From the NCBI GenBank assembly GCA_964594835.1, contig CAZQNA010000008.1, positions 1 to 64,000 of the forward strand: a DNA stretch of 64,000 nucleotides. The letters run 5' to 3'. A program made the translations under genes and the position numbers. The stretch comes from an uncultured Nitrososphaerota archaeon. GTDB taxonomy: Archaea > Korarchaeota > Korarchaeia > Korarchaeales > Korarchaeaceae. The notes under the pieces are model-generated. The model was not told the origin of the DNA. It saw only the letters and a list, made by a program, of their open reading frames with translations, and did not search any database. Below, one piece after another: positions 34,801-55,364 of this stretch. Position 1 is the stretch's first letter; every line of letters begins with the position of its first letter.

Positions 34801-37800
34801 AGGCTGGGCCTCACATCGAGGTCGTCCAGCACGGGATCCTCTTTCAATCTCTGCCCTCAGAGGGCTCTGATTGCTTCCGCAAGAGAGGGAAGGAACGTGG
34901 ATAGTGTGCGACGGGATATCTTTCAATCTCTGCCCTCAGAGGGCTCTGATTGCTTCATGAAGGCCTGCCTGACCTGCCGACCAAGAGGCGTCTCCGCTCT
35001 TTCAATCTCTGCCCTCAGAGGGCTCTGATTGCTTCAAAACTTTCAGGAGCAGGGCCGCGTGGTGAAAGTTTCCTTTCAATCTCTGCCCTCAGAGGGCTCT
35101 GATTGCTTCGAGAGAGGATAATAGAAGTCTTAGATGAAGAGGGGCCCCTGACTGCAACTTTCAATCTCTGCCCTCAGAGGGCTCTGATTGCTTCCTCCGA
35201 TTTTCTTTTGAACCTCTGGCGCTCGGAGCTAAAGAGGCTCCCTTTCAATCTCTGCCCTCAGAGGGCTCTGATTGCTTCTCTTAGGGTTTCAGAGCTATAT
35301 GATCACTTAGTGGAATTTCAAAATCGCCTTTCAATCTCTGCCCTCAGAGGGCTCTGATTGCTTCGGCAGTCTGACAGGATATCTGACACGTAGTCTGACA
35401 ATCGAGAGCTTTCAATCTCTGCCCTCAGAGGGCTCTGATTGCTTCAAGGGTGGCGGCATCAAAGCAGCGGCGCGCATCCTCATAGTTATCAACTTTCAAT
35501 CTCTGCCCTCAGAGGGCTCTGATTGCTTCCTTGGACGCGACGAGAGTGCCATTGGGATCAACCGTAACCCCTTTCAATCTCTGCCCTCAGAGGGCTCTGA
35601 TTGCTTCAGGAAAGTTTGTTCATACGGGTGACTTGTTTGGGAGGGCCTTTCAATCTCTGCCCTCAGAGGGCTCTGATTGCTTCTTGGCGTCATAAGGACG
35701 TCTGATTGGATTTCTCCTAAGAGCTTTCAATCTCTGCCCTCAGAGGGCTCTGATTGCTTCGGCCGTCGGGTCGGTGTATGGGATCTTCCGGCCGGTTCTT
35801 TCAATCTCTGCCCTCAGAGGGCTCTGATTGCTTCGACTTGCTCTGGCTCTGCGTAGTGAACCGCGATCACGGCGGCGCACTTTCAATCTCTGCCCTCAGA
35901 GGGCTCTGATTGCTTCACCAAACGAGATACAGCCAGATCCCTCTGGAACTGAGCTGGCTTTCAATCTCTGCCCTCAGAGGGCTCTGATTGCTTCTGAAGT
36001 CTACGTTCAGACTGGCAGGGAGTGTGATGTCAGAATCCTTTCAATCTCTGCCCTCAGAGGGCTCTGATTGCTTCCACCACGCTCTACGAGGCGGTGTTTA
36101 ACGTCTCAGATGGCACTCTTTCAATCTCTGCCCTCAGAGGGCTCTGATTGCTTCGGCGGGCGGGCCGATCGACGTCGGCGCGCCGCACCCGGCTTTCAAT
36201 CTCTGCCCTCAGAGGGCTCTGATTGCTTCGCGTGATAGGTCCCGGTCCACTGCCCTGAAATCCTGAATGGATCCCCTTTCAATCTCTGCCCTCAGAGGGC
36301 TCTGATTGCTTCTGATACCATATATGAACTCATGCTACGTCACCAATAACTGGCTGACCTTTCAATCTCTGCCCTCAGAGGGCTCTGATTGCTTCCCATA
36401 ATTCTCAGGTTCACGGAGGACAGCGTCTCTAACAGCTTTCAATCTCTGCCCTCAGAGGGCTCTGATTGCTTCTGACACTGCCAACTATAGCTCGGTGCAG
36501 TTCAAGCTGCCGCTTTCAATCTCTGCCCTCAGAGGGCTCTGATTGCTTCTAGGCCTCACCCCACCAAGAACATTAGGAGGAGGGGATCTTTCAATCTCTG
36601 CCCTCAGAGGGCTCTGATTGCTTCATAGAGGAGAAGGGGTCCCCCGAGGAGGGTGGCCCAGAGGGTTTTCCTACTCTTTCAATCTCTGCCCTCAGAGGGC
36701 TCTGATTGCTTCCGTACGCCTTGTGCCACGACCCGGCGGGGATTGTCATCTTTCAATCTCTGCCCTCAGAGGGCTCTGATTGCTTCGAATTGCTCCCCAG
36801 TAATGCGATCCATCCAAGTGGAAGAGACGCCTTTCAATCTCTGCCCTCAGAGGGCTCTGATTGCTTCTGCTGACGCTTTACACCGCCAGCAACGAGATCT
36901 CAACGGACGCTTTCAATCTCTGCCCTCAGAGGGCTCTGATTGCTTCGGGGAGGTTTGGATCGATAAAAACCCGGTCGTCCCCGCCGTTTTCGCTTTCAAT
37001 CTCTGCCCTCAGAGGGCTCTGATTGCTTCCCGGTCGGTCAGGGGCGCGGCGACCACGTCGCCCGACCTGGTTTTCTTTCAATCTCTGCCCTCAGAGGGCT
37101 CTGATTGCTTCGGGGGCCCGGCCGTGGGGTGAGCGGTAAGCCCGCCCCCGCTTTCAATCTCTGCCCTCAGAGGGCTCTGATTGCTTCCTGACTGGGAGGC
37201 TGATGAGGCTTGACAGAGGAGCTCTACGTGATCGCTTTCAATCTCTGCCCTCAGAGGGCTCTGATTGCTTCCTCCTCATGCTCTCACCTCCTCTTGAAGC
37301 CTCCAAGTGCTGCGCTTTCAATCTCTGCCCTCAGAGGGCTCTGATTGCTTCAAGTTTCACAGAGCTCGTTAGGGTTGCCCTGCATGACTATCCTTTCAAT
37401 CTCTGCCCTCAGAGGGCTCTGATTGCTTCGTCATAGCAGCCTTCAGGACTGATAAGACCAACAGCATTCTATACCTTTCAATCTCTGCCCTCAGAGGGCT
37501 CTGATTGCTTCATCGTCAAGCCTCCTGCCATTGTCGTCTGAGGACCCCAGAGCACAGCTTTCAATCTCTGCCCTCAGAGGGCTCTGATTGCTTCGCTTAT
37601 CGCCCATTATCCGCCCATCGCTTGCCACGTCCACGATCACTTTCAATCTCTGCCCTCAGAGGGCTCTGATTGCTTCAGGGCAACGGCGAACCCAAATAGG
37701 GGCCCGCCGCCGCTCCCTTTCAATCTCTGCCCTCAGAGGGCTCTGATTGCTTCTCGGAACCAAGACCGGATACCTCGGCTTTAGGAGCAGCGGACTTTCA

Positions 37801-40800
37801 ATCTCTGCCCTCAGAGGGCTCTGATTGCTTCGAGCGCATTTTAATCAGGCTCCCACTCCATGAATCCAATCATCCTTTCAATCTCTGCCCTCAGAGGGCT
37901 CTGATTGCTTCAGGAAAGTCCGCTGGCACGGAGAGTATTACATCATAACGGATGCTTTCAATCTCTGCCCTCAGAGGGCTCTGATTGCTTCGACTTCACA
38001 ATTCAGGTCAGGAATTGGACGGACGCCGACGATCTTTCAATCTCTGCCCTCAGAGGGCTCTGATTGCTTCAGGGCCACGAAGGGCTTAGCCGTGGCGACC
38101 CTTGTGTCTTTCAATCTCTGCCCTCAGAGGGCTCTGATTGCTTCGAGAAGTATGGCCTGGAACGAATCTAATGTATCTCCCGCCTCTGCTTTCAATCTCT
38201 GCCCTCAGAGGGCTCTGATTGCTTCCTACTCGAACTCCGCGGGGAGCCTCCAGGTCACCTACCTCTTCACTTTCAATCTCTGCCCTCAGAGGGCTCTGAT
38301 TGCTTCGTTCATCAAGGCCGGGAGCTACGCTCCCACGATACTCCTCAGCTACCTTTCAATCTCTGCCCTCAGAGGGCTCTGATTGCTTCAATCAGGCTTA
38401 AAGTTAGGCTATATTGGCACAGCATAAGGTGCCCCGCACTTTCAATCTCTGCCCTCAGAGGGCTCTGATTGCTTCACAAGGGCAGGGAGTGGAATCAAGG
38501 TAGCGGGCCTCGGCCTCTTTCAATCTCTGCCCTCAGAGGGCTCTGATTGCTTCTTGTGCAGAGGCGGTTAATAGCCTCCTCCCTTCTTAACTTTCAATCT
38601 CTGCCCTCAGAGGGCTCTGATTGCTTCTATGCTAGAGAAAAACAGAGAGAATTGTTTGAGATGATACTCAACTTTCAATCTCTGCCCTCAGAGGGCTCTG
38701 ATTGCTTCGCTGGGTGGGTTAGCGTCCCCCCGGAGGGAGACGCCGAAGTCTCTTTCAATCTCTGCCCTCAGAGGGCTCTGATTGCTTCCGCGGCGGGGGG
38801 AAGTTGAAAGGAAGAAGAAAGAAAGTATCTTTCAATCTCTGCCCTCAGAGGGCTCTGATTGCTTCTGATGGAGCAGGAGTCAGAGAGGTTCAAGATCCTG
38901 CCCTACAAGCACCTTTCAATCTCTGCCCTCAGAGGGCTCTGATTGCTTCACCTGCACGCCATAGCTCACGAATATCAGGTTCAGCGTGCCGTCTTTCAAT
39001 CTCTGCCCTCAGAGGGCTCTGATTGCTTCGACAGTCGCAACGCGTTCCCAATTTTCTCCATGCTTGTTGGAATCTTTCAATCTCTGCCCTCAGAGGGCTC
39101 TGATTGCTTCGATCTTCAGGGAATAAGCCAGAAGGTAAACATAACCGTTGGAGAGGCTTTCAATCTCTGCCCTCAGAGGGCTCTGATTGCTTCGTCCTCG
39201 GGGTTCGTTATGGGGTTAACGCCCTGGATCACTTTCAATCTCTGCCCTCAGAGGGCTCTGATTGCTTCATTGCGACATTCTCGAGAACCCATGGATCCAC
39301 CCTCTCCCACCACTTTCAATCTCTGCCCTCAGAGGGCTCTGATTGCTTCCCAGATGCCCAAGACTGGAGGCCTGAAGGTGGGCGCTTTCAATCTCTGCCC
39401 TCAGAGGGCTCTGATTGCTTCGAGACCTTGTGGAAGAAAGATGGGAGATCATCAGAGCGCTGAATGCTTTCAATCTCTGCCCTCAGAGGGCTCTGATTGC
39501 TTCGCAGCCACCAGCGTGGATCTCCCGCCCAGGTCGATGCTTTCAATCTCTGCCCTCAGAGGGCTCTGATTGCTTCTTGGTAACGCTCGCCTTGGCTGAA
39601 GTTGGAAAACTCGCAGACTCCCCTTTCAATCTCTGCCCTCAGAGGGCTCTGATTGCTTCGGGAGCTCACGGACGGATCAGACGACGGGGAGCTCCCGCCC
39701 GCCGCCTCTTTCAATCTCTGCCCTCAGAGGGCTCTGATTGCTTCATTGGGTTAACGCCCTGATCGAGGGCGTTAACCCCATAACTTTCAATCTCTGCCCT
39801 CAGAGGGCTCTGATTGCTTCCCGTGAGCTCCCCGGCCTCTAATGGGGCCGGTCTTGTCCCCGATTCTTTCAATCTCTGCCCTCAGAGGGCTCTGATTGCT
39901 TCGCTGAAATGAAGAAAAGGGGGGAGGATATCGATATTGAGAGGATCACTTTCAATCTCTGCCCTCAGAGGGCTCTGATTGCTTCACAACACCAATTTAA
40001 AGATAAGGTATGAAAAATATTCTTTCAATCTCTGCCCTCAGAGGGCTCTGATTGCTTCTCGTCGCGGACCCAAAACCTAAAGACTGAGAAGGTGGGGGGC
40101 CACAATACTTTCAATCTCTGCCCTCAGAGGGCTCTGATTGCTTCAAGGTGTGGGGCGTGACCCTCTTCTGAATGCCCGCCCTTCTGGCTTTCAATCTCTG
40201 CCCTCAGAGGGCTCTGATTGCTTCGGGATGGTATAGGGCCGCGTTACCCCAACCTTCCCCAGATCCCACCCATCTTTCAATCTCTGCCCTCAGAGGGCTC
40301 TGATTGCTTCCAGCAGCGCGGCGATGGCTTGGAACTCCACCAGCGAGAGGTCTTTCAATCTCTGCCCTCAGAGGGCTCTGATTGCTTCGTCAAAGAGGTC
40401 TAGGACTCTGGATGCAAAGAGCAGGGCCACTTTCAATCTCTGCCCTCAGAGGGCTCTGATTGCTTCGTACAAGTTCCTCCCCTTCAAGATGATCTCGGGA
40501 ATCTTTCAATCTCTGCCCTCAGAGGGCTCTGATTGCTTCCTGGCTCATACTCGCCTACGTGAAATCGGGCGTAACCACGAGCGTAATCTTTCAATCTCTG
40601 CCCTCAGAGGGCTCTGATTGCTTCCTCGGGAATAGGCGAGCAGATTCTAGCATTCAAGGCGGAGGCGCACTACACTTTCAATCTCTGCCCTCAGAGGGCT
40701 CTGATTGCTTCGTTGTTCAGTATCAGCTGGAAGCTGTCCATGGTTGCGGCGCTTTCAATCTCTGCCCTCAGAGGGCTCTGATTGCTTCCTTTTTGCGTTA

Positions 40801-43800
40801 CTAAGGTGTTAGGAACGCAAAGGGCCCCTGTATCACTTTCAATCTCTGCCCTCAGAGGGCTCTGATTGCTTCTCCTCAAACGACAGCGCCCCCAGAGACC
40901 GAGAATAAGAGCCCTTTCAATCTCTGCCCTCAGAGGGCTCTGATTGCTTCGGGGCTAGCCCCCTGGGTCACGGTGAAGGAGGCGATCCTTTCAATCTCTG
41001 CCCTCAGAGGGCTCTGATTGCTTCTTCTTCTTAAGGGCCCTCTTTTTATTAGAGGAGGTAGAAGCTTTCAATCTCTGCCCTCAGAGGGCTCTGATTGCTT
41101 CCCGGGTGGGGGTGGTGGTGGTGGGCAGCGGGTGGGTCTTTCAATCTCTGCCCTCAGAGGGCTCTGATTGCTTCAACTATAATCTTCTTTCACATGCTTC
41201 ATTAACTGATCCTTATCCTCTTTCAATCTCTGCCCTCAGAGGGCTCTGATTGCTTCGGATCAAATTATGAATGTGACCAGAATATAAAAAGACTTAAAGA
41301 GATCCTAAACTTTCAATCTCTGCCCTCAGAGGGCTCTGATTGCTTCGCTGAGGATTGGGTGAGGAGGTTTGTTAAGATTAGGCGGCGCTTTCAATCTCTG
41401 CCCTCAGAGGGCTCTGATTGCTTCGCAGTAGGTGAGTCAGAAGAGAATCCCCAATCTATTCCCGCATAGGTCTTTCAATCTCTGCCCTCAGAGGGCTCTG
41501 ATTGCTTCTTCTCTTATAGGAGAAGAAAGCGGCTTTCCGGGAAATATTCTTTCAATCTCTGCCCTCAGAGGGCTCTGATTGCTTCGCCTTCGGGGATGAT
41601 CGCGATCGAGCGCGGCGCGCCCGCCACTTTCAATCTCTGCCCTCAGAGGGCTCTGATTGCTTCGCTCGACAAGCTTGAGGTCGAGAGGCCACCGACGCCC
41701 GACAAGATAACTTTCAATCTCTGCCCTCAGAGGGCTCTGATTGCTTCCTGTGCTGAGGTTCGCACCGCCACATGCATGTCCTAGTACGCGCACACTCTTT
41801 CAATCTCTGCCCTCAGAGGGCTCTGATTGCTTCATCGTCGCGATGTTCGCCGCCATGCTGATCGTGGCACTGGTGGCCTCTTTCAATCTCTGCCCTCAGA
41901 GGGCTCTGATTGCTTCTGGCTGGTGATAGTCGGGCTGAGTAGGGGCAACAAGTGGTACGACTTTCAATCTCTGCCCTCAGAGGGCTCTGATTGCTTCCTG
42001 TTCGGGGACCCAAGCAAGTTCCTCAAGCCCAGAAGTGAGACGCCTTTCAATCTCTGCCCTCAGAGGGCTCTGATTGCTTCCATGGCAGCGTCCTTCAGCT
42101 GACTAGCGGAGATCCTCAGCGTGAAGCTTTCAATCTCTGCCCTCAGAGGGCTCTGATTGCTTCGGCTGTGAGGATAAGATCACAATTAAGGCTGAGCGTG
42201 AGAGTCTTTCAATCTCTGCCCTCAGAGGGCTCTGATTGCTTCTGGCTGGCGTGACCCCGGAGGGGGGGATGAGTCAGAGCGCCTTTCAATCTCTGCCCTC
42301 AGAGGGCTCTGATTGCTTCGGATATCCAAGCAATGCAAGAGATCGTCAAAAGGGACATCGCTTTCAATCTCTGCCCTCAGAGGGCTCTGATTGCTTCCTG
42401 CGCGAGGCGCGCCTCAACCCAGGCCGGCAGCTGCGGCTCCTTTCAATCTCTGCCCTCAGAGGGCTCTGATTGCTTCGCGCTGTCGGCGGTGATAATAGTT
42501 CTCGGTTACCTCACTCACGACTTTCAATCTCTGCCCTCAGAGGGCTCTGATTGCTTCGGCCACCATCACCGAGTCATAGTCGGGCTCTGTTACGCGCGTA
42601 ACTACCGCTTTCAATCTCTGCCCTCAGAGGGCTCTGATTGCTTCCTTCTCCCCGCTTTTCAGCAGTAGATAGGTGCCATATACCATGCTTTCAATCTCTG
42701 CCCTCAGAGGGCTCTGATTGCTTCTAGCACTAGCTGGTGATGTGCTCGAGGCAAACTGGACCGACGCCTTTCAATCTCTGCCCTCAGAGGGCTCTGATTG
42801 CTTCGTCTGCAGACACCCAGGGCGGCGCTTCAACTATCTGCAGCGTAACCTTCTCTCTTTCAATCTCTGCCCTCAGAGGGCTCTGATTGCTTCGTGATCC
42901 GGGAGATCAGCTTAGTGTCAGTCTCCCCCTTTCAATCTCTGCCCTCAGAGGGCTCTGATTGCTTCCAGGCTTATGTCGCGGCCAGAGTACAGAGTCGTGG
43001 CTTTCAATCTCTGCCCTCAGAGGGCTCTGATTGCTTCAAGGAACAGGGTGAACTCGATATTGAACGGATAGCCGAAACGTTCTTTCAATCTCTGCCCTCA
43101 GAGGGCTCTGATTGCTTCTGTTCCTTGACTAGGCTAGCGATCTCTGTTAGACGGCCTCCTCTCTTTCAATCTCTGCCCTCAGAGGGCTCTGATTGCTTCT
43201 GAACAAAATGTGGTTGTGGAAGATTTTCGAAAAGAAGGTCGCTATCTTTCAATCTCTGCCCTCAGAGGGCTCTGATTGCTTCCATTCAGAGCCTTCACTC
43301 CCGTGTCTACAAAGCGGCCCGAGACTTTCAATCTCTGCCCTCAGAGGGCTCTGATTGCTTCGGATGGGGTTCCGACCTATCTAATATCTCTGGGACGGCT
43401 CTCTTTCAATCTCTGCCCTCAGAGGGCTCTGATTGCTTCGAAGATGGCGAGGCAATCATATTTTGGAGCAAGTACGCAGATGACTTTCAATCTCTGCCCT
43501 CAGAGGGCTCTGATTGCTTCTCTTCATGTTCGACGCCGGCCCCGACGGGCAACGCGTTGAGGATGGCTTTCAATCTCTGCCCTCAGAGGGCTCTGATTGC
43601 TTCAATGTGGAGGAGCCGGTATTGCGCGCATTATGAAGAGGTAAACTTTCAATCTCTGCCCTCAGAGGGCTCTGATTGCTTCGAGGAGACCGGCCCGGTC
43701 GGGCTGGAGCAATACTTCTGAGGTGGCTTTCAATCTCTGCCCTCAGAGGGCTCTGATTGCTTCCTTCGCGCGGCACTCAGGGCAAAGGAGCTGATCAGGG

Positions 43801-45039
43801 AGCCGGAGGAGACCTTTCAATCTCTGCCCTCAGAGGGCTCTGATTGCTTCGAAGAGGATCACGCGAAGCTCAGAGTCGGAGTGTTCAGGACGTATCCTTT
43901 CAATCTCTGCCCTCAGAGGGCTCTGATTGCTTCTAGTCACAGGTGATTCGGGAATCGTTGCCGTCCAGAGAGGACCTGATCTTTCAATCTCTGCCCTCAG
44001 AGGGCTCTGATTGCTTCGGGCCCCACCTCGTTCTGAGGAGGGTCTTGCTGTGGATCTTTCAATCTCTGCCCTCAGAGGGCTCTGATTGCTTCTTATTGCT
44101 CATTTTGAATCCCTCCAAAAAGACCGCCGGAGAGTTTACTTTCAATCTCTGCCCTCAGAGGGCTCTGATTGCTTCCTATTTCGACAATGAGGCTGACTGC
44201 TCCTCATGGGTTAACTTTCAATCTCTGCCCTCAGAGGGCTCTGATTGCTTCGTGAGGGTGGTCTTATGCCGAAGAAGGCGAAGAAGAAGTCGCCTTTCAA
44301 TCTCTGCCCTCAGAGGGCTCTGATTGCTTCATGGCGGAAATTCTTGACGGGTTTGTGAGGTGATTTATGACTTTCAATCTCTGCCCTCAGAGGGCTCTGA
44401 TTGCTTCTCCTCAAGGAGTTCGGCGTCAAGATCCCGAACCTCGGCTACGTCATCCCTTTCAATCTCTGCCCTCAGAGGGCTCTGATTGCTTCATGCGGGG
44501 CCTCGCCGAGAGATGGTGCAGGCTGAGGGGCTTTCAATCTCTGCCCTCAGAGGGCTCTGATTGCTTCCCGAGTACTGGCTCGAGTATAGCGGATACGTCT
44601 CGTCCGCTTTCAATCTCTGCCCTCAGAGGGCTCTGATTGCTTCGGCTTGTCTTCAGGGTGATATGATGGCCGCGCAGGCTCAGACCGCTTTCAATCTCTG
44701 CCCTCAGAGGGCTCTGATTGCTTCATCCGGGCACGAAGGTGACGGACGTGAAGGAAGTCAGGGTCGCTTTCAATCTCTGCCCTCAGAGGGCTCTGATTGC
44801 TTCATAGGGTACACCCCGCCATCAATCTCTCCAGATGAGATGTACCTCTTTCAATCTCTGCCCTCAGAGGGCTCTGATTGCTTCTTTTTTGAACCCCTAT
44901 ATCACACACGTTAACTGATTGGCGATACTTTCAATCTCTGCCCTCAGAGGGCTCTGATTGCTTCGTCTCACCTCCTAACTCTTTTTTGTGGCCGGCAAAA
45001 AACTTTCAATCTCTGCCCTCAGAGGGCTCTGATTGCTTC
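28818..45039 (-). CRISPR. CRISPR array 1, about 205-210 repeats (estimated from the ~78-nt period); repeat GAAGCAATCAGAGCCCTCTGAGGGCAGAGATTGAAAG (37 nt)
   Basis: Near-invariant 37-nt repeats with mostly unique spacers. The ATTGAAAG 3' handle and the leader at 45040+ give minus orientation; internal GCCCT-CTG-AGGGC hairpin. Confidence 0.99.
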
Positions 45040-45149
45040 CCCCATCCTTACCTTCTTAGGAGGGCCCCCGACCTCCACCAGGCCGCCCCGTTTTCGGGCG
45101 CGCCGCGCTGATCGGGGTCTCCACCGTCGCCTTATAAGGATCAGCGCCC
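45040..45149 (-). promoter_or_regulatory. CRISPR leader of array 1
   Basis: 110 nt, near-identical (2 mismatches by eye) inverted copy of 51773-51882; TTATAA box at 45132-45137. Confidence 0.9.
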
Positions 45150-45192: not shown

Positions 45193-45732
45193 TCACACCC
45201 CTCTGCAGGCGAGAAAATGTTCACACACTGCACACTTGCCCCTGTTGGGTGTTGGGGGAGGCATGTACTCCTCCTCCAAGATCTTCCTTATTTCCTCCAG
45301 CGTCCTCAGGACCTCACGCCTCAGCCTCCTCAGAGAGCTGATTCTCACCAGCCCCAACCCTCCAGGATAGTAAAGGAATCCCTCCCGCACCTCGACATCG
45401 AAGTTCTCCTCAACCAACATGGCGTATGCGGCCAGTTGAACCCTGTGAGACCTAGCCGGAGAGGCGAACTTCACCTCCAGTGGATATGCTCTCTCTCCGC
45501 AGTGGAGGAGCCCGTCAAGCCTGCCCCAGAGCCCGAGCCGCTCCGACTTCAGGATCACGTCCCTCTCCACCCTGCAGCCTCTAAGAGGAACGAGCCGGAT
45601 GGCCTCTCGCACGGCCCTGTCCTGCCTCTCCTTCCCCCTCCTCATCAGGGGAGTCTCAACTCCCCCCATCCTGAGAACCCGTCTCCAGTAGATTATGCGG
45701 GGGCAGTAGAGGTACTGCCTGATGTCGGACAC
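45193..45732 (-). CDS. cas4: CRISPR-associated exonuclease Cas4
   Basis: QYLYCPR, GRLDGL, PLEVK, QLAAYA, KCAVCEHFLAC Fe-S cysteines. Confidence 0.95.
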   Translation of the reverse strand: MSDIRQYLYCPRIIYWRRVLRMGGVETPLMRRGKERQDRAVREAIRLVPLRGCRVERDVILKSERLGLWGRLDGLLHCGERAYPLEVKFASPARSHRVQLAAYAMLVEENFDVEVREGFLYYPGGLGLVRISSLRRLRREVLRTLEEIRKILEEEYMPPPTPNRGKCAVCEHFLACRGV

Positions 45733-45820: not shown

Positions 45821-46117
45821 TTACACCACGACGTATCCAGGCCCCCCGTACTCCGGATCGGGGTCGAAGCCCTCCACCCTCCCTATCCTCATGGTCATGC
45901 CGTAGAGGCGCCGATCCATGACGTAGATCCTGACCGCCCCCTCTCTGCCCTTCATGATCTCCGACAGCTCGTAGAAGAGCGAGAGCCTCTGACTCTTCGA
46001 CAGTATCCCGGCGAACGCGCTCCTCTGGATGTGTCTGAGTCCGTAGTCCTTGCACCTCTTCTCCACGGCCCTCCTGACCCCGTCGTCGCTTATGTCGTAG
46101 ACCACGAGCGTCATCAA
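45821..46117 (-). CDS. cas2: Cas2
   Basis: LVVYDISDD..R..CKDYGLRHIQRSAFAG. Confidence 0.96.
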   Translation of the reverse strand: MMTLVVYDISDDGVRRAVEKRCKDYGLRHIQRSAFAGILSKSQRLSLFYELSEIMKGREGAVRIYVMDRRLYGMTMRIGRVEGFDPDPEYGGPGYVVV

Positions 46118-46123
46118 GCTGGG

Positions 46124-47146
46124 TCACCCCCTCCACCTCCAGGGGTCGTAGGACGGTGAGTCCCCCCTCACGTACGTGGCTATGGCCCTCGCCTGACCCA
46201 GAATGACGTCCTTGAGCCTCCAGCTCTCGCCCCTGTAATCCACGCGAGACTCCAGCGCCTCCAGGACCCTCTCGACGACGAGCCTCCTCCCCCGACCCCT
46301 CAAGTAAACTCCCTCGCCCCTCCTGGTGAAGTCCCCCTCATGGTCCAGCACCCTCTTCGTGAACAGGGGGATCACGGGCCTGTGGGATGCGTAGACGAGG
46401 AACTCCTCCGCCAGGTCAAGCGAGATGCTGGTCCTGCCGGACCTGTCGGCGTGGAGGTAGCCGGAGAACGGATCCAGGCCAGCCATGACGGCCGCCCTGA
46501 AGGCCTCCGAGTACACGAAGGAGTTGGCGAAGCTGATGGCCGCGTTGAACGGATCTTTGGGCGGCCTCCTTGTCCTGACTCCCCTGTAACCGTACTCGGG
46601 CGGGACCACCAGGCTCAGGGCCCTGAAGTACTCCTCTGCGGCCCTCCCCTCCACCCCCATTATCCTCGATCTGACCTCGTCCAGGCGGCCCGATATGCCA
46701 GACAGCTCCCTCAGGTGCTCCCTCACCCTGTTCGCGGCGTCCATCAGCCTGAGCTTGACGGCGCCCTCCCGGTTCCTCGCCAGCCTGGACAGCATGACGG
46801 CCCTGGAGTCTATGGCGGCCCTCGCGAAGGCCTTGGCGAACTCAACCCCCCTCTCATCGTCGTACGCCCTCAGCTGCTCCCTCCTCGTCCTGGAGGTCCC
46901 GCCGTAAGTTGCCGGCAGGACCAGGGCCGTGGGCTCCCCCCGGAGGGACGTGACGGTCACGGCTATCCCCCTTGCCGCCGCGCGGGAGAGCAGGTCCGTG
47001 GTTATCGAGGCCCCCTCGCACACCACCAGGCACTCGATCTGATCTAGAGGTATCTCCTCGCGCCTCCCTGAGGAGAAGAAGACCAGCCTCTCCCCCTCAA
47101 CCCTCAGCCTCACGCCGGGGGTGTCCACGACTACGGCCTTCCTCAA
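46124..47146 (-). CDS. cas1: Cas1 integrase
   Basis: MGVEGRAAEEYF, RTRRPPKDPFNAAISF, GLDPFSGYLH, LDLAEEF. Confidence 0.97.
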   Translation of the reverse strand: MRKAVVVDTPGVRLRVEGERLVFFSSGRREEIPLDQIECLVVCEGASITTDLLSRAAARGIAVTVTSLRGEPTALVLPATYGGTSRTRREQLRAYDDERGVEFAKAFARAAIDSRAVMLSRLARNREGAVKLRLMDAANRVREHLRELSGISGRLDEVRSRIMGVEGRAAEEYFRALSLVVPPEYGYRGVRTRRPPKDPFNAAISFANSFVYSEAFRAAVMAGLDPFSGYLHADRSGRTSISLDLAEEFLVYASHRPVIPLFTKRVLDHEGDFTRRGEGVYLRGRGRRLVVERVLEALESRVDYRGESWRLKDVILGQARAIATYVRGDSPSYDPWRWRG

Positions 47147-48525
47147 GCGCCACCACCCAGCAGGTACACCCTGTACCCTCCCCTCCTCTTCCTCCTCTGC
47201 ACGAGCCCCTCGCGCTCCAGGGCCAGAATAGCCCGCTCGTAGAGGGGCGGGGGGAGCTTGACCTTTCTCTTGAGCTCAGACTGCGTGAGACTTCCGAAGC
47301 CGGAGAGGGCCTCGAGCACCTTCCTCTTGGCGTGCGCCTCGTCAAGTATCGGCTCTATGGCCCGCCTCCTGCGACGCGCCCTCTTCCTGGCGGCTCTCAC
47401 CTCGGACTTGGCCTCCTCTTCCCTCTCAGCCTCCTGCCTGGCCACCTCCCTGACGAGGTCTCCGTCCACGTTCCTGAACCCCCTCTCAAGCCCCTCGGCC
47501 AGGCTGACGCTGGCCAGCCTCAGGGCCGACCTCGGAATCCCGCGAGAGATCTCCGCAATCGCGGAGAGGGCCTCGTCCGTGAACGGGTAGCTGTCCTCAA
47601 CCATTCCGGACGCCTCGGAGGTCCTGAACGCCCTGAGGTACCGCCTTATCATCTCCCGGATCTCGCCTTCCCTCAGGGGGCCGAGCACGAGGACGTCCCA
47701 GGCTCCCCAGAGGCGGCTCTCGAGGGCCGGGTTCAGGGCGGCTATCCCGAACTCCACGTCGCTCAGGACAGCCTCACTGGCCGAGAAGACCAGGAGGGCG
47801 CCCTCCGGCAGCTTGTCGATCAGCTGCCTCATGTCGGAGTAGAAGGAGGCCACCTGATCCCTCGTGGAGGCCGAGAGCGCCTCGTCCAGCTCGTCCACCA
47901 GTATCAGGAGCTTCCTCCCGAGCACGCTCCAGATCACGTCCACCAGGGCGGAGAGCGCGTCCACCGCCGAGTGGTCGTCCAGGTTCATCACAATCTTCAG
48001 CCTCCTCAGCTCCGCGCGGCCCAGCTGGTCACCCTGAAGCCACGCGAGGGCCGAGGTGTCCCCGGACGCGATGCCCCGCAGAGCCGCCGTCAGGTCGGGC
48101 ATCCGCGCCAGCCTGCCTGGCGGACTCCTGAGCGCGGCCCTGGCGAGGTCCCTGAGGAAGTCCCTCCCGAGCTGAGAGTCGAGGCACTTCACCACCTCGG
48201 AGAGGAGGCTCAGCATGCTCGCCGACCTGAGCCCCTTCACGTAGACGGGTATCACGCCGTCGTACCTCCTCCTCGCGGCGTGCTCGAGGTACTTCAGCGC
48301 GTGGGTCTTGCCCATCCCGTACCTGCCCACCAGCAGGAGGACCGCCGAACCCTCACCCTCCCTCAGGCTCACGAGCCTCCTATCCAGCTCCCTCTTGAGG
48401 TCGTCCCTTCCGACTAGGATCGAGGAGTACCTGTCCTCATCCGGGTCGCCCACCGGAAAGGACCCGTGGTGCGGGAAGGGATTCTTCCTCAGGCCGTACC
48501 TCTCGTAGCCTCCGGACGCACTCAT
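47143..48525 (-). CDS. P-loop AAA+ ATPase with C-terminal winged helix
   Basis: YGLRKNPF, Walker A GRYGMGKT, Walker B LILVDELD, ALESRL (Arg finger), SRGIPRSAL (sensor 2), C-terminal wHTH; 4-bp overlap with cas1. Confidence 0.85.
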   Translation of the reverse strand: MSASGGYERYGLRKNPFPHHGSFPVGDPDEDRYSSILVGRDDLKRELDRRLVSLREGEGSAVLLLVGRYGMGKTHALKYLEHAARRRYDGVIPVYVKGLRSASMLSLLSEVVKCLDSQLGRDFLRDLARAALRSPPGRLARMPDLTAALRGIASGDTSALAWLQGDQLGRAELRRLKIVMNLDDHSAVDALSALVDVIWSVLGRKLLILVDELDEALSASTRDQVASFYSDMRQLIDKLPEGALLVFSASEAVLSDVEFGIAALNPALESRLWGAWDVLVLGPLREGEIREMIRRYLRAFRTSEASGMVEDSYPFTDEALSAIAEISRGIPRSALRLASVSLAEGLERGFRNVDGDLVREVARQEAEREEEAKSEVRAARKRARRRRRAIEPILDEAHAKRKVLEALSGFGSLTQSELKRKVKLPPPLYERAILALEREGLVQRRKRRGGYRVYLLGGGA

Positions 48526-49256
48526 CTTCCACCCCCCCAGATTGAGAGGAAGTACAGGAGGCGCCCCCTCTCGTCCCTGATCGCGTCTCTCACAACGGTC
48601 CTGCTCCAGGCGGGCGCGGGGCTCAGCATGGCGCCCGGGATTGCCTCCACCGCCTCGAGTACCAGCGCGTCGAAGGCCTCCCTGCTCAGTCCCCTTCTGC
48701 TCATCTCTTCCCTCATCCTGGTGAGCGACACGGGCTCTCCCAGCACGTGTGTGACCCCCCTATACGCCTCCTCCAGGGCCTTCGCCAGCGCGGCAATGGC
48801 CCCGGCCTCGGTGACCCTCACGACCCTTGACGACCTGGAGACCAGCCCCAGGTCCTCGGCCAGCCTCACTACGTACGTTGCCCTCTTCTCCCGAGTCGAC
48901 TTCCTCCCCCTGCGGTAGAGCGCCCTCGCGATCTCCGGAACGGTGGAGGGGGTCGTGAGCGAGATCCACAGGACCCGGAACACCTCCGGGTGAGAGATGG
49001 CCGCCTCCCCTATGGACCCGGACCCCGCGTCCACGTAGAGGTACCTGCCCGACCTCCTCACCCGTCTGACCAGTCCAAGGGACCTGAGGCCGGCCAGCGC
49101 GGCCTGAACCTTCCTCCTGGGAGCCTTCAGGGTCTCCGAGATCTCCCCGCAGGTCCCACCCCGCCCCCGGGATCCGAGCTCCCGGGCGACCGCCTCGAGT
49201 ACCCCAAGGCCGGGGTAGCTGTACGAAGGCATGGGCCTCACGCGACGTTCAGCCAC
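48522..49256 (-). CDS. Tandem winged-helix DNA-binding protein
   Basis: GTCGEISETLKAPRRKVQAALAGLRSLGLVRR and STVPEIARAL..LAEDLGLVSR..VTEAG. Confidence 0.65.
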   Translation of the reverse strand: MAERRVRPMPSYSYPGLGVLEAVARELGSRGRGGTCGEISETLKAPRRKVQAALAGLRSLGLVRRVRRSGRYLYVDAGSGSIGEAAISHPEVFRVLWISLTTPSTVPEIARALYRRGRKSTREKRATYVVRLAEDLGLVSRSSRVVRVTEAGAIAALAKALEEAYRGVTHVLGEPVSLTRMREEMSRRGLSREAFDALVLEAVEAIPGAMLSPAPAWSRTVVRDAIRDERGRLLYFLSIWGGGR

Positions 49257-50616
49257 CTCCCAACGCCTCCCTCGTCACCGCCGAGATGGCCCGGTGAGCC
49301 CTCCCAGCCGCCCCACCCGCGCGAAGCGAGTAACCCAGCTCGCCCAGCTCCACGAGGCCCACCAGCGGCCCAGACAGTTCGTTGAGGATGCGCTCGACTC
49401 CCTGAGCGTTGACCTCCGCGCCTCTTTCGAGCAGGATGGACAGGATCTCCTCGGCCCGCAGGGCCCCAGCCTCCCTCAAGATCCGGAGAACGGCGGAGCG
49501 GAGCCCCAGCTCGGCCTCCCACCCGGAGATCCGAAGCCTGATGATCTCCCATGGGTCCCCCTCCGCCAGCTCGCCGGGCCTGATCCTGGCCAGGTTCAGG
49601 GGGAGGGCCCTGAGGAACGCCGCACTCAGGACATCGCAAACCTGGTCCCAGGTCAGAACGGCAACGCCCTCCCTCCTCCCCCTGGACACCACCTCGGCCG
49701 ACGCCGAGGTCGCGACGAGCCAGGCCCCCCACTCCACCCCTGCCCCCGACTTGGAGAGCCTCCCCGTCCTCCTGTACTCGTCCAAGTAATCCCTCGCCTG
49801 CTCTACTGAGGTCAGGTCCGCCCTCTCGTTCTTCAGCTCGAACAGAGTCCACATCGGGGCCATCGCGACGATGTCCGGCCTGCCCGGCCCCATGGACCTC
49901 TCGCGGTCTATCAGACATCCAGCGGCCTCGAGCAGGTCCATGAGGCCGAGGTTGAGCTCTCCCTCCGGTGCGCCCTCCCTGGCCATCCTCCTCAGACTCT
50001 CCACGGCATCTGCGAGCCTCTCGGGCCACACAAACGAGGCGGACCTTGCGAGCTCCCGCGCCGCCGACTCGAGGGCCGACTCCAGCGCCATCATCCTGGA
50101 CTCGGCCTCGAGTGCAGAGTCCGGATTCTCAGCCCAGCTGACGAACTCCCCGAAGCTGAGGCCCGACGCCTTGAGGGACTCCTCCAGTGGGCGTAACGAC
50201 TCCGCGCTTCCGACCCTCTCCATCCTGGAGAGTATGTAGACCACAAGGCCCCCGCCCTCCCGCGCCTCCTTGACGACCGAGAGAGATGCGTCCCAGCAGA
50301 TCAGGGCCGCGGATCCCCCTTCCGTCGACCTGAGCCAGGCCAGGAGCGGGCTCGCCGAGGCCTGGTCCACCCTGCCCCCGTCAAGCACAACCCTCAGGGA
50401 GGCTCCCGGCAGACGGGCGGTGAGGGAGTCGCCGACCATTGAGGAGCGGTGTCCGTCGGCCCTCAGGGCCCTTCCCAACCTTTGGAGGGCGGCCCTGGCG
50501 CGTGATATCCTGTCCTCCCTCAGCCGCTGGATTATCGCCTCTCCCGCAAAGACTCCCAGATATTTGCGGGAGGATGAGGCGGCCCCGGGCACGCCTATAT
50601 GATCGCCGACAGCCAT
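49249..50616 (-). CDS. PD-(D/E)XK (Mrr/NucS-like) endonuclease with C-terminal wHTH
   Basis: GRPDIVA..LFELK..SVEQARDY catalytic pattern; C-terminal VLRILREAGALRAEEI..VERILNELSGPLVGLV. Confidence 0.7.
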   Translation of the reverse strand: MAVGDHIGVPGAASSSRKYLGVFAGEAIIQRLREDRISRARAALQRLGRALRADGHRSSMVGDSLTARLPGASLRVVLDGGRVDQASASPLLAWLRSTEGGSAALICWDASLSVVKEAREGGGLVVYILSRMERVGSAESLRPLEESLKASGLSFGEFVSWAENPDSALEAESRMMALESALESAARELARSASFVWPERLADAVESLRRMAREGAPEGELNLGLMDLLEAAGCLIDRERSMGPGRPDIVAMAPMWTLFELKNERADLTSVEQARDYLDEYRRTGRLSKSGAGVEWGAWLVATSASAEVVSRGRREGVAVLTWDQVCDVLSAAFLRALPLNLARIRPGELAEGDPWEIIRLRISGWEAELGLRSAVLRILREAGALRAEEILSILLERGAEVNAQGVERILNELSGPLVGLVELGELGYSLRAGGAAGRAHRAISAVTREALGGG

Positions 50617-50897: not shown

Positions 50898-51725
50898 TTG
50901 CCCGCTATCGTCACCGCGTACCTGTATCCCTCCACGACCCTGATGTATGAGGTCCCCTCCTCGGGAAGGATTGCACAGTCAGCGCTGTTCTCGGCCCTCA
51001 AGGCGTCTGACCCGTCCGTGGCCTCGGGCCTGCATCGCCTATCCGCAAAGCTGAGGCTCGGCACGCCCTACTCGGTCAGCAGGATCACGACGGCCGCGAG
51101 GTACGTGAAGGGGGTGACGGCCGTGGTCCCAGCCGGAGATCACGTTCGCCTCACGGTTAAGCTCCTGAGGGATGAGCTCGTGGATCCCTACGTCAGGGGG
51201 CTGTTCAACTCCCCACTGAAGATCAACGGGGTGCCCGTGGAGGTGGCGGAGGTCAAGGTGGGCAGGGTGAGCTACGAGGACCTGCTCACGGGGAGCCCCG
51301 TCGTCCCAGGGGTCAGGCTCAGGCTGATGACCCAGACGATCCTCGAAGGAGAGGAGTTCCCCCCTCCCCTATGGGAGGTCCTGCAGAGGCCCATCGCGGC
51401 CTGGAACGCCAACGCCCCGGATCACCTGAGGTTGGGGGATCCCCAGCTGGAGGGGGTGTGGCTGGCGCAGCCCACCTCACCGTCCTGGCTGGAGAGCGGG
51501 GCCGTTAAGGTGTGGTACGGGGCGGAGCCCGTCGTGAGGGTCGGCTACACGGGGGTCCTGAGCTACTCCCTGCGATCCCTGAGCACGTTCCACGGCAGGG
51601 TGGTCTCGGCCCTCCTGAGGTTTGCGGAGTTCAGCGGGATTGGCAAGAGGACCACCGTGGGATTTGGGGTAGTGAAGGTCTCGTTTTGGAGGAAGAGGTC
51701 CAGGAGAGGGCGTAAGTCTGCATGA
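50898..51725 (+). CDS. cas6: Cas6 endoribonuclease
   Basis: PYSVS, LRLMTQT, GYTGVLSY, C-terminal G-loop FAEFSGIGKRTTVGFG. Confidence 0.9.
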   Translation: MPAIVTAYLYPSTTLMYEVPSSGRIAQSALFSALKASDPSVASGLHRLSAKLRLGTPYSVSRITTAARYVKGVTAVVPAGDHVRLTVKLLRDELVDPYVRGLFNSPLKINGVPVEVAEVKVGRVSYEDLLTGSPVVPGVRLRLMTQTILEGEEFPPPLWEVLQRPIAAWNANAPDHLRLGDPQLEGVWLAQPTSPSWLESGAVKVWYGAEPVVRVGYTGVLSYSLRSLSTFHGRVVSALLRFAEFSGIGKRTTVGFGVVKVSFWRKRSRRGRKSA

Positions 51726-51772
51726 GGGGACGCGGGGCTGGTGGAACCTCAACCTTAAGATGCACGCGCTCC

Positions 51773-51882
51773 GGGCGCTGATCATTATAAGGCGACGGTG
51801 GAGACCCCGATCAGCGCGGCGCGCCCGAAAACGGGGCGGCCTGGTGGAGGTCGGGGGCCCTCCTAAGAAGGTAAGGATGGGA
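51773..51882 (+). promoter_or_regulatory. CRISPR leader of arrays 2 and 3
   Basis: Inverted copy of 45040-45149; TTATAA at 51786-51791; abuts the first repeat. Confidence 0.9.
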
Positions 51883-52450
51883 GAAGCAATCAGAGATGTC
51901 GTACCACTTGTTGCCCCGTACTTGTACATCTGGAGCAAGAGACGCTCGTCATCTTCTTCGAAGCAATCAGAGATGTCGTACCACTTGTTGCCCCGTTCTT
52001 CTATGATACCGCCGCCGAATATGCCAGGAAGCAGAGAAGCAATCAGAGATGTCGTACCACTTGTTGCCCAGCCCCAAATGGGGAAACAACTGACGTAAGG
52101 TAGGTAGATATCGAGAAGCAATCAGAGATGTCGTACCACTTGTTGCCCCGGAAATGAACGCCTTGTTTCTGCGGGCCTTTGGTATCTGAGAAGCAATCAG
52201 AGATGTCGTACCACTTGTTGCCCCTCGTCGGCTTCAACTACTATGTCCACCCTCTTACGAGAGAAGCAATCAGAGATGTCGTACCACTTGTTGCCCCCCG
52301 GTTACGGAGATGGCTTACAGGACGTTCAACAGGTGAAGAAGCAATCAGAGATGTCGTACCACTTGTTGCCCCCTCCAGAGCTTCATCTGGGAATGGTCGC
52401 ATCTTAACTCCATGAGAAGCAATCAGAGATGTCGTACCACTTGTTGCCCC
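51883..52450 (+). CRISPR. CRISPR array 2 with non-canonical chimeric repeat GAAGCAATCAGAGATGTCGTACCACTTGTTGCCC(C), 8 copies and 7 spacers
   Basis: Repeat starts at 51883, 51960, 52036, 52115, 52190, 52263, 52338 and 52416, separated by unique ~38-45 nt spacers. Confidence 0.95.
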
Positions 52451-52473
52451 TACTCAGCCCGACTATCACCAGC

Positions 52474-52580
52474 TCCTAAGAAGGTAAGGATGGGAGAAGC
52501 AATCAGAGATGGTCGAGTTCACCATTACCGTGAACAACAAGACCCTCCTAAGAAGGTAAGGATGGGAGAAGCAATCAGAG
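52474..52580 (+). repeat. Two extra copies of the leader 3' end plus repeat 5' end (target-site-duplication-like)
   Basis: TCCTAAGAAGGTAAGGATGGGA-GAAGCAATCAGAG at 52474-52508 and (CCC-extended) 52543-52580, identical to the leader/repeat junction 51858-51895. Confidence 0.92.
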
Positions 52581-55274
52581 CCCTCTGAGGGCAGAGATTG
52601 AAACTTCCCAGACCATTCCTCATTTTATTGCTTCTTTTCACATGTGAAGCAATCAGAGCCCTCTGAGGGCAGAGATTGAAAGATTGGACACTTGAACACC
52701 GTGTAGATCGCCTCACGGTCCCGTATGAAGCAATCAGAGCCCTCTGAGGGCAGAGATTGAAACCTGGGGAGCCAGCTGGGCCTATCGGCGGTGGCGGCCA
52801 TGAGAAGCAATCAGAGCCCTCTGAGGGCAGAGATTGAAACCACAACCTTGGTGGCCACGAACTTGTAGCCCGCAGCGTTCCTCTTCGAAGCAATCAGAGC
52901 CCTCTGAGGGCAGAGATTGAAACAATCCATCGTCTACTATATCATAAGAATCCTTAAGACTCTCAAGGAAGCAATCAGAGCCCTCTGAGGGCAGAGATTG
53001 AAACGATGAGGAGGGGTGAGCATGGGTAAGACAAGGGGTAAGTCGTGGAGAGGAGAAGCAATCAGAGCCCTCTGAGGGCAGAGATTGAAACGGTCGGGGT
53101 TCTGGTCGGGCCTAAGCAGGGGATAGAGAGCGAAGCAATCAGAGCCCTCTGAGGGCAGAGATTGAAACTCGCCAGTCTCCTCTCCCACCTCTCTCCCAAG
53201 TATAGGAGAAGCAATCAGAGCCCTCTGAGGGCAGAGATTGAAACGAAATGCGTCTCGTGGACGGTCATGCTCCCACCCTCGGGGCGAAGCAATCAGAGCC
53301 CTCTGAGGGCAGAGATTGAAACTACAACAACAACCCACTTTGCGGCAACAGCCTCCGGTGGGTTGTTCGAAGCAATCAGAGCCCTCTGAGGGCAGAGATT
53401 GAAACATTTAAAATTCAACACAGGATACGATTAACGTAAATGTTCTAGAAGCAATCAGAGCCCTCTGAGGGCAGAGATTGAAACCAGGGCAAACATGTTC
53501 CACGTCTTCATGTATCTTTCGTTTGATTCGAAGCAATCAGAGCCCTCTGAGGGCAGAGATTGAAACCAGTAGTTTATGCCCTCCTGCAACACCACGTTCT
53601 TTGGGCCAAGAAGCAATCAGAGCCCTCTGAGGGCAGAGATTGAAACGACGGAGGATCTCGGGGTTCGGATTTTGGATCTTAACCCGAAGCAATCAGAGCC
53701 CTCTGAGGGCAGAGATTGAAACTATCCAGAGGTAAACGCTGTGGCTGTAGGTGGTGTCGGTGTTGAAGCAATCAGAGCCCTCTGAGGGCAGAGATTGAAA
53801 CTTAAGGCTTCCCAAGTGTTGTAATGAATCCGGATCAGTTTGGTCGAAGCAATCAGAGCCCTCTGAGGGCAGAGATTGAAACCGCTCGGTCACCGAGGTT
53901 CCTTAACTACACCACCGTCATAGACCTCGAAGCAATCAGAGCCCTCTGAGGGCAGAGATTGAAACCGTTTCCCCTCAGGGTGTTCTGGCAAAAACGTTAC
54001 TGAAGCAATCAGAGCCCTCTGAGGGCAGAGATTGAAACCGGCCCGAGATTATCAGCCCCCTCCCGGGGTGGCTCTCGAAGCAATCAGAGCCCTCTGAGGG
54101 CAGAGATTGAAACTGATGGCCTGGATCGAGATCGACGAGGATCAGCTGGAACACTGAAGCAATCAGAGCCCTCTGAGGGCAGAGATTGAAACCACTCCAG
54201 CTCCACCTCTATCAGCAGCTTGATCCCGGTCGCGAAGCAATCAGAGCCCTCTGAGGGCAGAGATTGAAACAAGTTCAAGAAGCTGACCCTCACTCAAATC
54301 CGTGATGCTTACAGAGAAGCAATCAGAGCCCTCTGAGGGCAGAGATTGAAACGTGAGGGGCACCAACTCATATTACTTTGCTTGGCTGCCCAAGAAGCAA
54401 TCAGAGCCCTCTGAGGGCAGAGATTGAAACAACAGCCTAACTGTGGCCTTCATTCCGGCTTGGGGAGCATGGGAAGCAATCAGAGCCCTCTGAGGGCAGA
54501 GATTGAAACTGAGACCGAGATAGGCGCTCTTAGAACCAATTGCAATGAAGCAATCAGAGCCCTCTGAGGGCAGAGATTGAAACGAAACTTTCAGGACTCG
54601 TCCCTTTCGGCGGAAACTTTCGGAAGCAATCAGAGCCCTCTGAGGGCAGAGATTGAAACCTTCCGAGCGGTTATAACGCAGGTGAAGAAAGATCCTAATG
54701 GAAGCAATCAGAGCCCTCTGAGGGCAGAGATTGAAACTCCTCCTCGGCAAAACGCTTGATTTCCTCGGCTATGTCGAAGCAATCAGAGCCCTCTGAGGGC
54801 AGAGATTGAAAGGTCGTGGCCCTCCGGGACGAAAACGGCGATGAAGGGATACGTGAAGCAATCAGAGCCCTCTGAGGGCAGAGATTGAAAGAATCGATCA
54901 AGAGCGTAAGGATGGTGGCGCTGATGAGAAGCAATCAGAGCCCTCTGAGGGCAGAGATTGAAAGGAGCGAGTGAACTCTAGCACAGCAATGTAAGCTGGC
55001 CTGGAAGCAATCAGAGCCCTCTGAGGGCAGAGATTGAAAGTCGGTGAACCCGCCAGGCACTTCATATCCCACAGTGCTGGGTGAAGCAATCAGAGCCCTC
55101 TGAGGGCAGAGATTGAAAGTGGCTTGCGGGCGATTCTCGTCCCAAATTAGGCCGGACGAAGCAATCAGAGCCCTCTGAGGGCAGAGATTGAAAGTCGCGC
55201 GCGAGATTGAAAGTTCGTGGTGAATGGCTCCTATTACTGGAACTTGGGGCTGGAAGAAGGAAGCAATCCGAGCC
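52568..55274 (+). CRISPR. CRISPR array 3, 34 full canonical repeats (ending ATTGAAAC or ATTGAAAG) plus degenerate tail
   Basis: Repeats 52568-55194; partial repeat GAGATTGAAAG at 55203-55213 and degenerate GAAGCAATCCGAGCC at 55260-55274. Confidence 0.98.
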
Positions 55275-55364
55275 TCGCGCGGCTCGGCGTTTGGAGGCTC
55301 GTTACAGGTCGTTTCACCAAGTTCCGTATATTCCCAGGAGGCGGAGGCGCTCCGGGGGTCAAGG

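Follow-up and report, generated by a model that had tools for sequence, protein, structure and literature searches.

Introduction

How new CRISPR repeats and arrays originate has largely been inferred from overexpression experiments in Escherichia coli. Here we describe a CRISPR-Cas locus that is a natural case of non-canonical integration, a process already known from laboratory work. The locus lies in a 64-kb stretch of DNA (positions 1 to 64,000 of contig CAZQNA010000008.1, assembly GCA_964594835.1; hereafter the window) from an uncultured archaeon of the Korarchaeaceae. In its plus-strand array, off-register integration by Cas1-Cas2 into the array's own leader very probably made a hybrid repeat, which was then copied seven more times.

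In E. coli, off-target integration is described as giving rise to expandable neo-CRISPR arrays (Nivala et al. 2018, via 10.1101/148544, PMC6698737 and PMC7054753). As in those accounts, integration at the locus described here would have taken place at a site other than the leader/repeat junction, with duplication of the target and continued expansion of the new site as an array. The E. coli events, as presented there, were driven by overexpression, whereas those in the archaeon are natural and concern arrays beside a type III-B module; here, the insertions lie inside the system's own leader, old repeat and spacer each make up half of the resulting repeat, the working array has been displaced from its leader and nine successive events are recorded. 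For the type I-B system of Haloarcula hispanica, misplacement of the first cut is reported to leave the duplication at repeat length (Wang et al. 2016, PMC4872114), and the same source cites E. coli proteins acting on a non-cognate array, where the new repeat had gained two bases from the leader and was missing its own last two. The archaeal locus likewise has repeat-length duplications despite a misplaced cut, and a shift of -2 in five of seven chimeric copies; it differs from the cases given in that source in that shifts of -25 and -23 also occur, the integrase is the cognate one and the -2 shift came after the 3′ two-thirds of the repeat had been replaced. Off-target integration at repeat-length spacing is also described for an archaeal integrase, Pyrococcus furiosus Cas1-Cas2 (Grainy et al. 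2019, PMC6698737), in that description on plasmid DNA in vitro, whereas the site used here is in a leader, was used in vivo and is fixed in the lineage. In Streptococcus type II-A systems, ectopic acquisition also places spacers away from the first repeat (PMC7999890, PMC5338259) but, as these sources describe it, uses a normal internal repeat in register and generates no new repeat sequence. Word searches of the open-access literature found no published natural case of leader-internal off-register integration. The locus thus offers a natural series of nine successive integrations in which every border is readable, and supplies precise substrates for testing how an archaeal integrase associated with a type III-B module chooses its sites.

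Leaders, junction copies and the chimeric array

The leaders of the two arrays in the window are both ~110 nucleotides (nt) long and identical at 108 of 109 positions, a TATA-like box included. The leader of the minus-strand array (45041-45149, minus strand), with G at position -1, abuts a canonical repeat directly, so the wild-type leader/repeat junction is known; leader and canonical repeat are likewise directly adjacent in both arrays of the closest named relative that was found, a Thermoproteota metagenome-assembled genome with a Cas1 that is 89% identical (hereafter the congener). This minus-strand array (28819-45040; hereafter the sister array) has 204 repeats, of which 203, all ending in G, fit the full canonical pattern and one is truncated. 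The canonical repeat is 37 nt long, with ATTGAAAC or ATTGAAAG at its 3′ end, and canonical spacers (n = 234) range from 35 to 53 nt.

On the plus strand, the full leader (51773-51882, start approximate; TATA-like box TTATAAGG at 51785) has A at position -1 and is followed by chimeric array A (51883-52450), which consists of seven spacers and eight chimeric repeats starting at 51883, 51960, 52036, 52115, 52190, 52263, 52338 and 52416. Each chimeric repeat is made of 13 nt of canonical repeat, ATG and 19 nt of a spacer, X2, the latter unrelated to the canonical repeat. The eighth repeat is followed by a 22-nt tail (52451-52472), the second of the leader/repeat junction copies, 31 further bases and the third junction copy, which runs on into the first repeat of canonical array B (52568-55194, plus strand; 34 repeats of 37 nt and 33 spacers). 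Array B is in this way severed from the full leader.

Spacer X2 (52432-52472, plus strand; 41 nt) supplies with its first 19 nt the 3′ part of the oldest chimeric repeat and with its last 22 nt the tail. It is identical to nt 1-41 of G039, a 44-nt spacer of the sister array (41917-41960, minus strand) that has canonical repeats on both sides. The two begin at a common 5′ end and point the same way with respect to the leader; outside the spacer they have nothing in common except one G, and no flanking repeat is shared. This shows directly that the noncanonical half of the chimeric repeat is spacer DNA. A first-pass annotation, made from the letters of the window and a list of its open reading frames, had traced the 3′ part of the chimeric repeat and the following 22 nt to what was once a single spacer, and this 41-nt sequence is present, as one contiguous unit, in a spacer of the sister array.

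The plus strand has three blocks in which the end of the leader (its last 23-25 nt) is joined to the start of the 37-nt repeat (its first 13-16 nt): junction copy 1 at 51858-51898 (true leader end, 13 nt of repeat and ATG), copy 2 at 52473-52511 (23 nt of leader, 13 nt of repeat and ATG) and copy 3 at 52543-52580 (25 nt of leader and 13 nt of repeat). Copies 1 and 2 are 100% identical over 39 nt (51860-51898 versus 52473-52511). The corresponding stretch of copy 3 (52545-52583) is 92% identical to the other two, diverging past the first 13 repeat bases, and since copy 3 also has two extra C in common with the true leader, it starts at 52543. The 23-nt leader end has exactly three occurrences across the whole 24-contig genome and, judged by their length, three identities of 36-39 nt cannot be put down to chance. 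Alignment thus bears out the three junction copies of the first-pass annotation, with copy 2 starting at 52473 and not 52474; base 52473 is already part of the leader copy, and the spacer before it measures 41 nt (52432-52472) where 42 had been given. The other insert, X1, stands as annotated (52509-52542, plus strand; 34 nt, or 35-36 nt if its final C's belong to it). X1 and X2 sit exactly between duplicated copies and their sizes, 34-36 and 41-44 nt, are at or within the range of the canonical spacers.

Such a layout might also come from repeats mis-joined during metagenome assembly, given a 24-contig draft, a repetitive region and the lack of a Logan contig that spans it. Logan contigs from four public runs (run X1 to run X4) of two studies, one of which may be the assembly's own source, were compared with the assembly over 51700-52700, uncovered stretches being uninformative. 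Contigs with 0 differences lead from the full leader into the chimeric repeat (51785-51910, run X4), from the last chimeric repeat through the tail into a leader copy (52421-52502, run X2), and from leader copy 2 through the insert into leader copy 3 (52473-52572, runs X2 and X3; 52482-52572, run X1). Each novel joint is covered in this manner, contigs with the X1 insert and junction copy 3 coming from three runs and two studies. Given these pieces, the assembled order is, as far as contigs can tell, the only linear path that enters the X1 insert, and an assembly artefact is extremely improbable.

Length of the duplicated target and the -2 shift

If the junction copies are integration scars, copy 3 would be the target duplication of a first event and copy 2 that of a second. 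For every frozen copy, the length of the left match to the true leader was added to that of the right match to the next younger copy, the sum being a bound on the duplicated target. The two far off-register events have maximal units of 25 + 13 = 38 nt, as the first-pass annotation had it, and 23 + 16 = 39 nt, where it had 22 + 16 = 38. The seven later events give 37, 36, 36, 37, 37, 37 and 37 nt. The two values of 36 nt flank the single variant base of chimeric copy 3 and, with this base tolerated, the bound becomes 38, which allows 37.

The identical measure was applied, as a control, to pairs of canonical repeats, for which the true value is 37. In the sister array (202 pairs) it returned 37 (116 pairs), 38 (46), 39 (23), 40 (12), 41 (3), 42 (1) and 113 (1), the last being a tandem duplication, and so gave 37-39 nt in 185 of the 202 pairs. 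In array B (33 pairs) it returned 36 (3), 37 (16), 38 (6), 39 (4), 40 (3) and 41 (1). Values of 38 and 39 are therefore what a 37-nt stagger with chance matches at its borders often reads as, and all nine events fit one ruler of ~37 nt, the length of the repeat. This periodicity, which can be read directly from the copies, suggests that the stagger keeps repeat length whatever the sequence, and the maximal blocks of 38 and 39 nt lend support to the integrase reading, with two off-register insertions, that had been put forward in the first-pass annotation.

The later insertions, which that annotation had taken as normal, are for the most part not in register: their offsets are -2 in five of seven, -1 in one and 0 in one. 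Copies with the -2 offset carry the last two bases of the leader and end two bases early. A left match of at least 2 is present in 5 of 7 chimeric copies versus 12 of 202 sister-array pairs (binomial p ~1.4e-5), and on this comparison the -2 shift of the later insertions is real. After loss of the repeat's inner part, the cut on the leader side would drift by -2.

Duplications can also arise with no integrase, through slippage during replication, or through unequal recombination or gene conversion between arrays and leaders. The borders of the first event have a 5-nt microhomology, CCCTC, on both sides, and slippage is known at this locus from a 21-nt repeat with a deletion between two CAGAG and three tandem spacer duplications in the sister array. 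Slippage would, however, be expected to leave tandem copies with no insert, whereas here spacer-sized inserts lie exactly at the joints; the borders of the second event show no microhomology; homologous exchange finds no support, as X2 and G039 have no flank in common; and nine successive duplications cluster at 37 nt. The first-pass annotation had held that an insert matching adjacent host sequence would speak for slippage or recombination. X1 has no match in the host genome outside itself, nor in viral, phage or plasmid collections; X2 does match the host, but as a sister-array spacer with no common flanks, so that its match is no pointer to either process. We consider an origin of the layout by slippage, recombination or conversion highly improbable.

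Proposed order of events

The ancestral plus-strand array would have had the wild-type layout, with the leader followed by a 37-nt repeat and spacers. In a first event, Cas1-Cas2 (with Cas4) would have inserted X1, of ~35 nt, by staggered cuts ~24-25 bp upstream of the normal ones, at leader position -25, after a run of five G, and after repeat base +13. Repair of the gaps would have duplicated the 37-38 nt between the cuts, leaving the leader-proximal copy adjoining spacer DNA and not the rest of the repeat. In a second event, X2 (41-43 nt) would again have been misplaced, with cuts at -23 and +16 and a duplication of 37-39 nt, after which the leader adjoined 13 nt of repeat, ATG and X2. Seven further spacers would then have been inserted near the proper junction, with offsets of -2 (five), -1 and 0 and 37 nt duplicated each time, propagating a chimeric repeat with the first 19 nt of X2 as its 3′ half. 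Removing these insertions backwards (the seven near-register ones, then X2 with 39 nt and X1 with 38 nt) restores the wild-type junction exactly. If the account is correct, a leader with at most 13-16 nt of repeat suffices for continued acquisition.

The enzymes that this requires are present. The adaptation module is intact, with cas4 (45193-45732, minus strand; TIGR00372, E 2.2e-37), cas2 (45905-46114, minus strand; PF09827, 56.9 bits, above the cut-off, and with no stops) and cas1 (46124-47146, minus strand; TIGR00287, E 3e-67, profile positions 2-325 of 327) situated between the two arrays, and it is single, cas1 having one match and cas2 one copy in the genome. That the integrase encoded here was the agent, and that it acted in the order given, is what we infer from the layout.

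The reverse order leads to exactly the present sequence as well: X2, then 44 nt long and starting with ATG, would have entered first and X1 (36 nt, ending in CC) later, at the internal partial leader copy, with a 36-nt duplication each time. X2 would then have the length of G039 (44 nt), shifted by 3 nt. This order, however, needs two coincidences, namely that both inserts start with ATG (1/64) and that X1 ends in CC as does the leader at -25/-24 (1/16), and it places an insertion at an internal site where just 23 nt of leader are present, contrary to the leader-proximal polarity of the seven later events. It also needs 36 nt twice, and the control measure fell below 37 in 0 of 202 sister-array pairs (it was 36 in 3 of 33 array-B pairs). 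We regard the reverse order as decidedly unlikely; the order given in the first-pass annotation, the 34-nt insert and then the 41-nt spacer, is the one free of coincidences.

Several observations weigh against off-register integration as the source of the hybrid repeat. At face value, the far off-register duplications are 38 and 39 nt and not 37, and the CCCTC at the borders of the first event is also expected of a duplication by slippage. X1, if 34 nt long, is 1 nt under the shortest of the 234 canonical spacers. The match of X2 lies within the same genome, which alone could suggest intragenomic copying, and no protospacer was found for X1, X2 or any other spacer, so that a foreign origin is presumptive. 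The support for the assembly consists only of short contigs, which break at the repeated block and none of which spans the whole stretch. An aberrant register was, furthermore, used twice and a near-normal one afterwards, for which we have no explanation.

Some features of the leader may bear on the choice of site. The leader-side cut of the first event is immediately 3′ of a G5 run (-30 to -26), and the sister leader and both congener leaders likewise have a G-run 5′ of the normal cut, so that the upstream run may have mimicked the normal one. By eye, the canonical and aberrant cut sites have in common only the CAGAG and CCCTC repeats and, before the cut on the leader side, this G-run. In the plus-strand leader, base -1 is A instead of G in all three copies, and the change therefore predates the first event; it may have weakened the proper site and so favoured mis-anchoring. 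Loss of the inner repeat in the first event may in turn explain both the second misplacement and the later drift to -2, which hints at a role for the repeat's inner part in setting the leader-side cut. As a tentative whole, possible though somewhat less likely than not, the locus can be seen as a natural stepwise record of an array swapping its repeat, in which the 37-bp stagger was kept, a G-run 25 bp upstream caused mis-anchoring, spacer DNA became repeat and spacers were still added to an array that probably could not be read by Cas6 and the Cmr machinery.

Origin of the inserted spacers

Exact-pattern searches of viral contigs with 41-mers of X2 and B01 (the first spacer of array B), the 34-mer of X1 and a 40-mer of the newest chimeric-array spacer found no match, nor did a 32-mer of X2 in metagenome contigs. 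With up to 3 mismatches allowed, the X2 32-mer matched, among 40 genomes of the class, only two places in its own genome. Searches of phages and plasmids with arrays A and B (blastn) and with the sister array (megablast) found no protospacer. A 22-mer of the leader in metagenome contigs and a 36-mer of the repeat in genome contigs revealed no other strain and no ancestral or intermediate allele. The empty protospacer searches leave X2 with a length of 41-44 nt.

X2/G039 and B01/G166 are the only spacers common to both arrays. B01 (52605-52645, plus strand; 41 nt) is identical to G166 (31827-31786, minus strand) minus its 3′-terminal G. The adaptation machinery might thus have captured X2, and B01 too, from the organism's own 204-repeat sister array, X2 then being integrated off-register. 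Two of three consecutive acquisitions (B01, X1, X2) are old sister-array spacers (G166 and G039), as against 0 of the 40 others in arrays A and B; for both shared spacers to lie among a given 3 of 43 the probability is 0.0033, and the set was chosen post hoc. Neither copy exceeds its original in length, the two falling short by 1 and 3 nt, and no external protospacer was found. Capture from the array would, however, require the repeat end to act as a selection motif, as the 5′ ends coincide with spacer borders, and nothing speaks for such a role. Independent re-sampling of one protospacer, with a motif-fixed 5′ end and a 3′ end that varies, accounts for the same observations, and repeated sampling of one target region does occur in these arrays (G066 and G073). 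The simple reading is that favoured protospacers were sampled again when infection recurred, and capture from the sister array is an improbable one, although no flanking motif could be derived from the empty searches and the two are not separable on these data. If capture did take place, spacers can move between arrays.

G066 (39783-39745) and G073 (39231-39194), both on the minus strand, have the same target in opposite orientations, so that one region of an invader was sampled twice. When spacers were compared with their own genome, with matches inside both array regions dropped, the only real match was that of G061, 34 of 36 bases at 13227-13262 of contig C7, where no flanking motif was readable. 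By eye, the G061 target gene looks to have a tyrosine-recombinase motif region, and G061 was probably derived from a related mobile element. Comparison of the spacers with the congener loci by shared 14-mers found no run of shared words; there were single-word matches for G021, G025 and G147, and those for G171 stem from a piece of repeat inside this spacer.

Probable consequences for function

The canonical repeat has a predicted fold of -12 kcal/mol (z -2.58), a two-stem hairpin with stems CAAUC/GAUUG and GCCCU/AGGGC. For the chimeric repeat the value is -4.5 kcal/mol (z -0.2 to -0.3), which is no improvement on shuffled sequence. The 3′ terminus of chimeric repeats is TTGCCCC, in place of the canonical ATTGAAAC end (ATTGAAA(C/G)), which we take to provide the 8-nt 5′ tag of CRISPR RNAs (crRNAs). 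Because both the hairpin and this end are missing, excision and loading of the chimeric array's spacers are unlikely; these spacers are probably not made into usable crRNAs and would in that sense be unreadable.

The TATA-like box is present only in the full leader, so that transcription of array B would depend on read-through across ~690 nt; there are no runs of four or more T between 51883 and 52622. Severed from its leader, array B presumably can no longer grow. The sister array remains normal. The cost of errors in adaptation would here have been the severing of a working array from its leader, with new memories probably stored in unreadable form.

Locus, genome and minor observations

The source genome is a draft of 24 contigs (1.82 Mb, 65% G+C, 97% complete), and one public run that holds the region is labelled as a hydrothermal vent metagenome. 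From left to right, the window has a gene for a Csa3-like regulator, a type III-B module (Cmr4, Cmr5, Cmr1, Cmr6, Cas10/Cmr2 and Cmr3), the sister array and its leader, cas4, cas2 and cas1, three genes of unclear role, cas6 and the second leader with the plus-strand array. The cas6 gene (50898-51725, plus strand), directly 5′ of the leader, matches PF10040 above the cut-off (35.5 bits) and TIGR01877 below that profile's cut-off (E 7.2e-11). A search of the genome for cas3 gave seven weak helicase-like matches, none above the cut-off. The three genes between cas1 and cas6 (47143-50616, minus strand) encode a BrxC/D-like P-loop ATPase of 460 amino acids with a winged-helix end, a 244-amino-acid protein with a weak TrmB-like helix-turn-helix and a 455-amino-acid protein with a weak NucS C-terminal-like match.

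The truncated repeat of the sister array (31361-31381, minus strand; 21 nt) looks like the product of a deletion between two internal CAGAG direct repeats. The same array has tandem duplications (minus strand), with G175/G176 present again as G177/G178 (31034-30764) and G193 identical to G194 (29603-29489). In array B, 27 repeat copies have C as their last base and 7 have G, those ending in G being the six oldest and the second-youngest (52646); this lone young copy, directly 3′ of the shared spacer B01, is unexplained. At its far end (55195-55300, plus strand), array B degenerates into the partial end of a repeat, GAGATTGAAAG, and a decayed repeat start in which C replaces A, and this degenerate stretch overlaps the start of a 545-amino-acid open reading frame.

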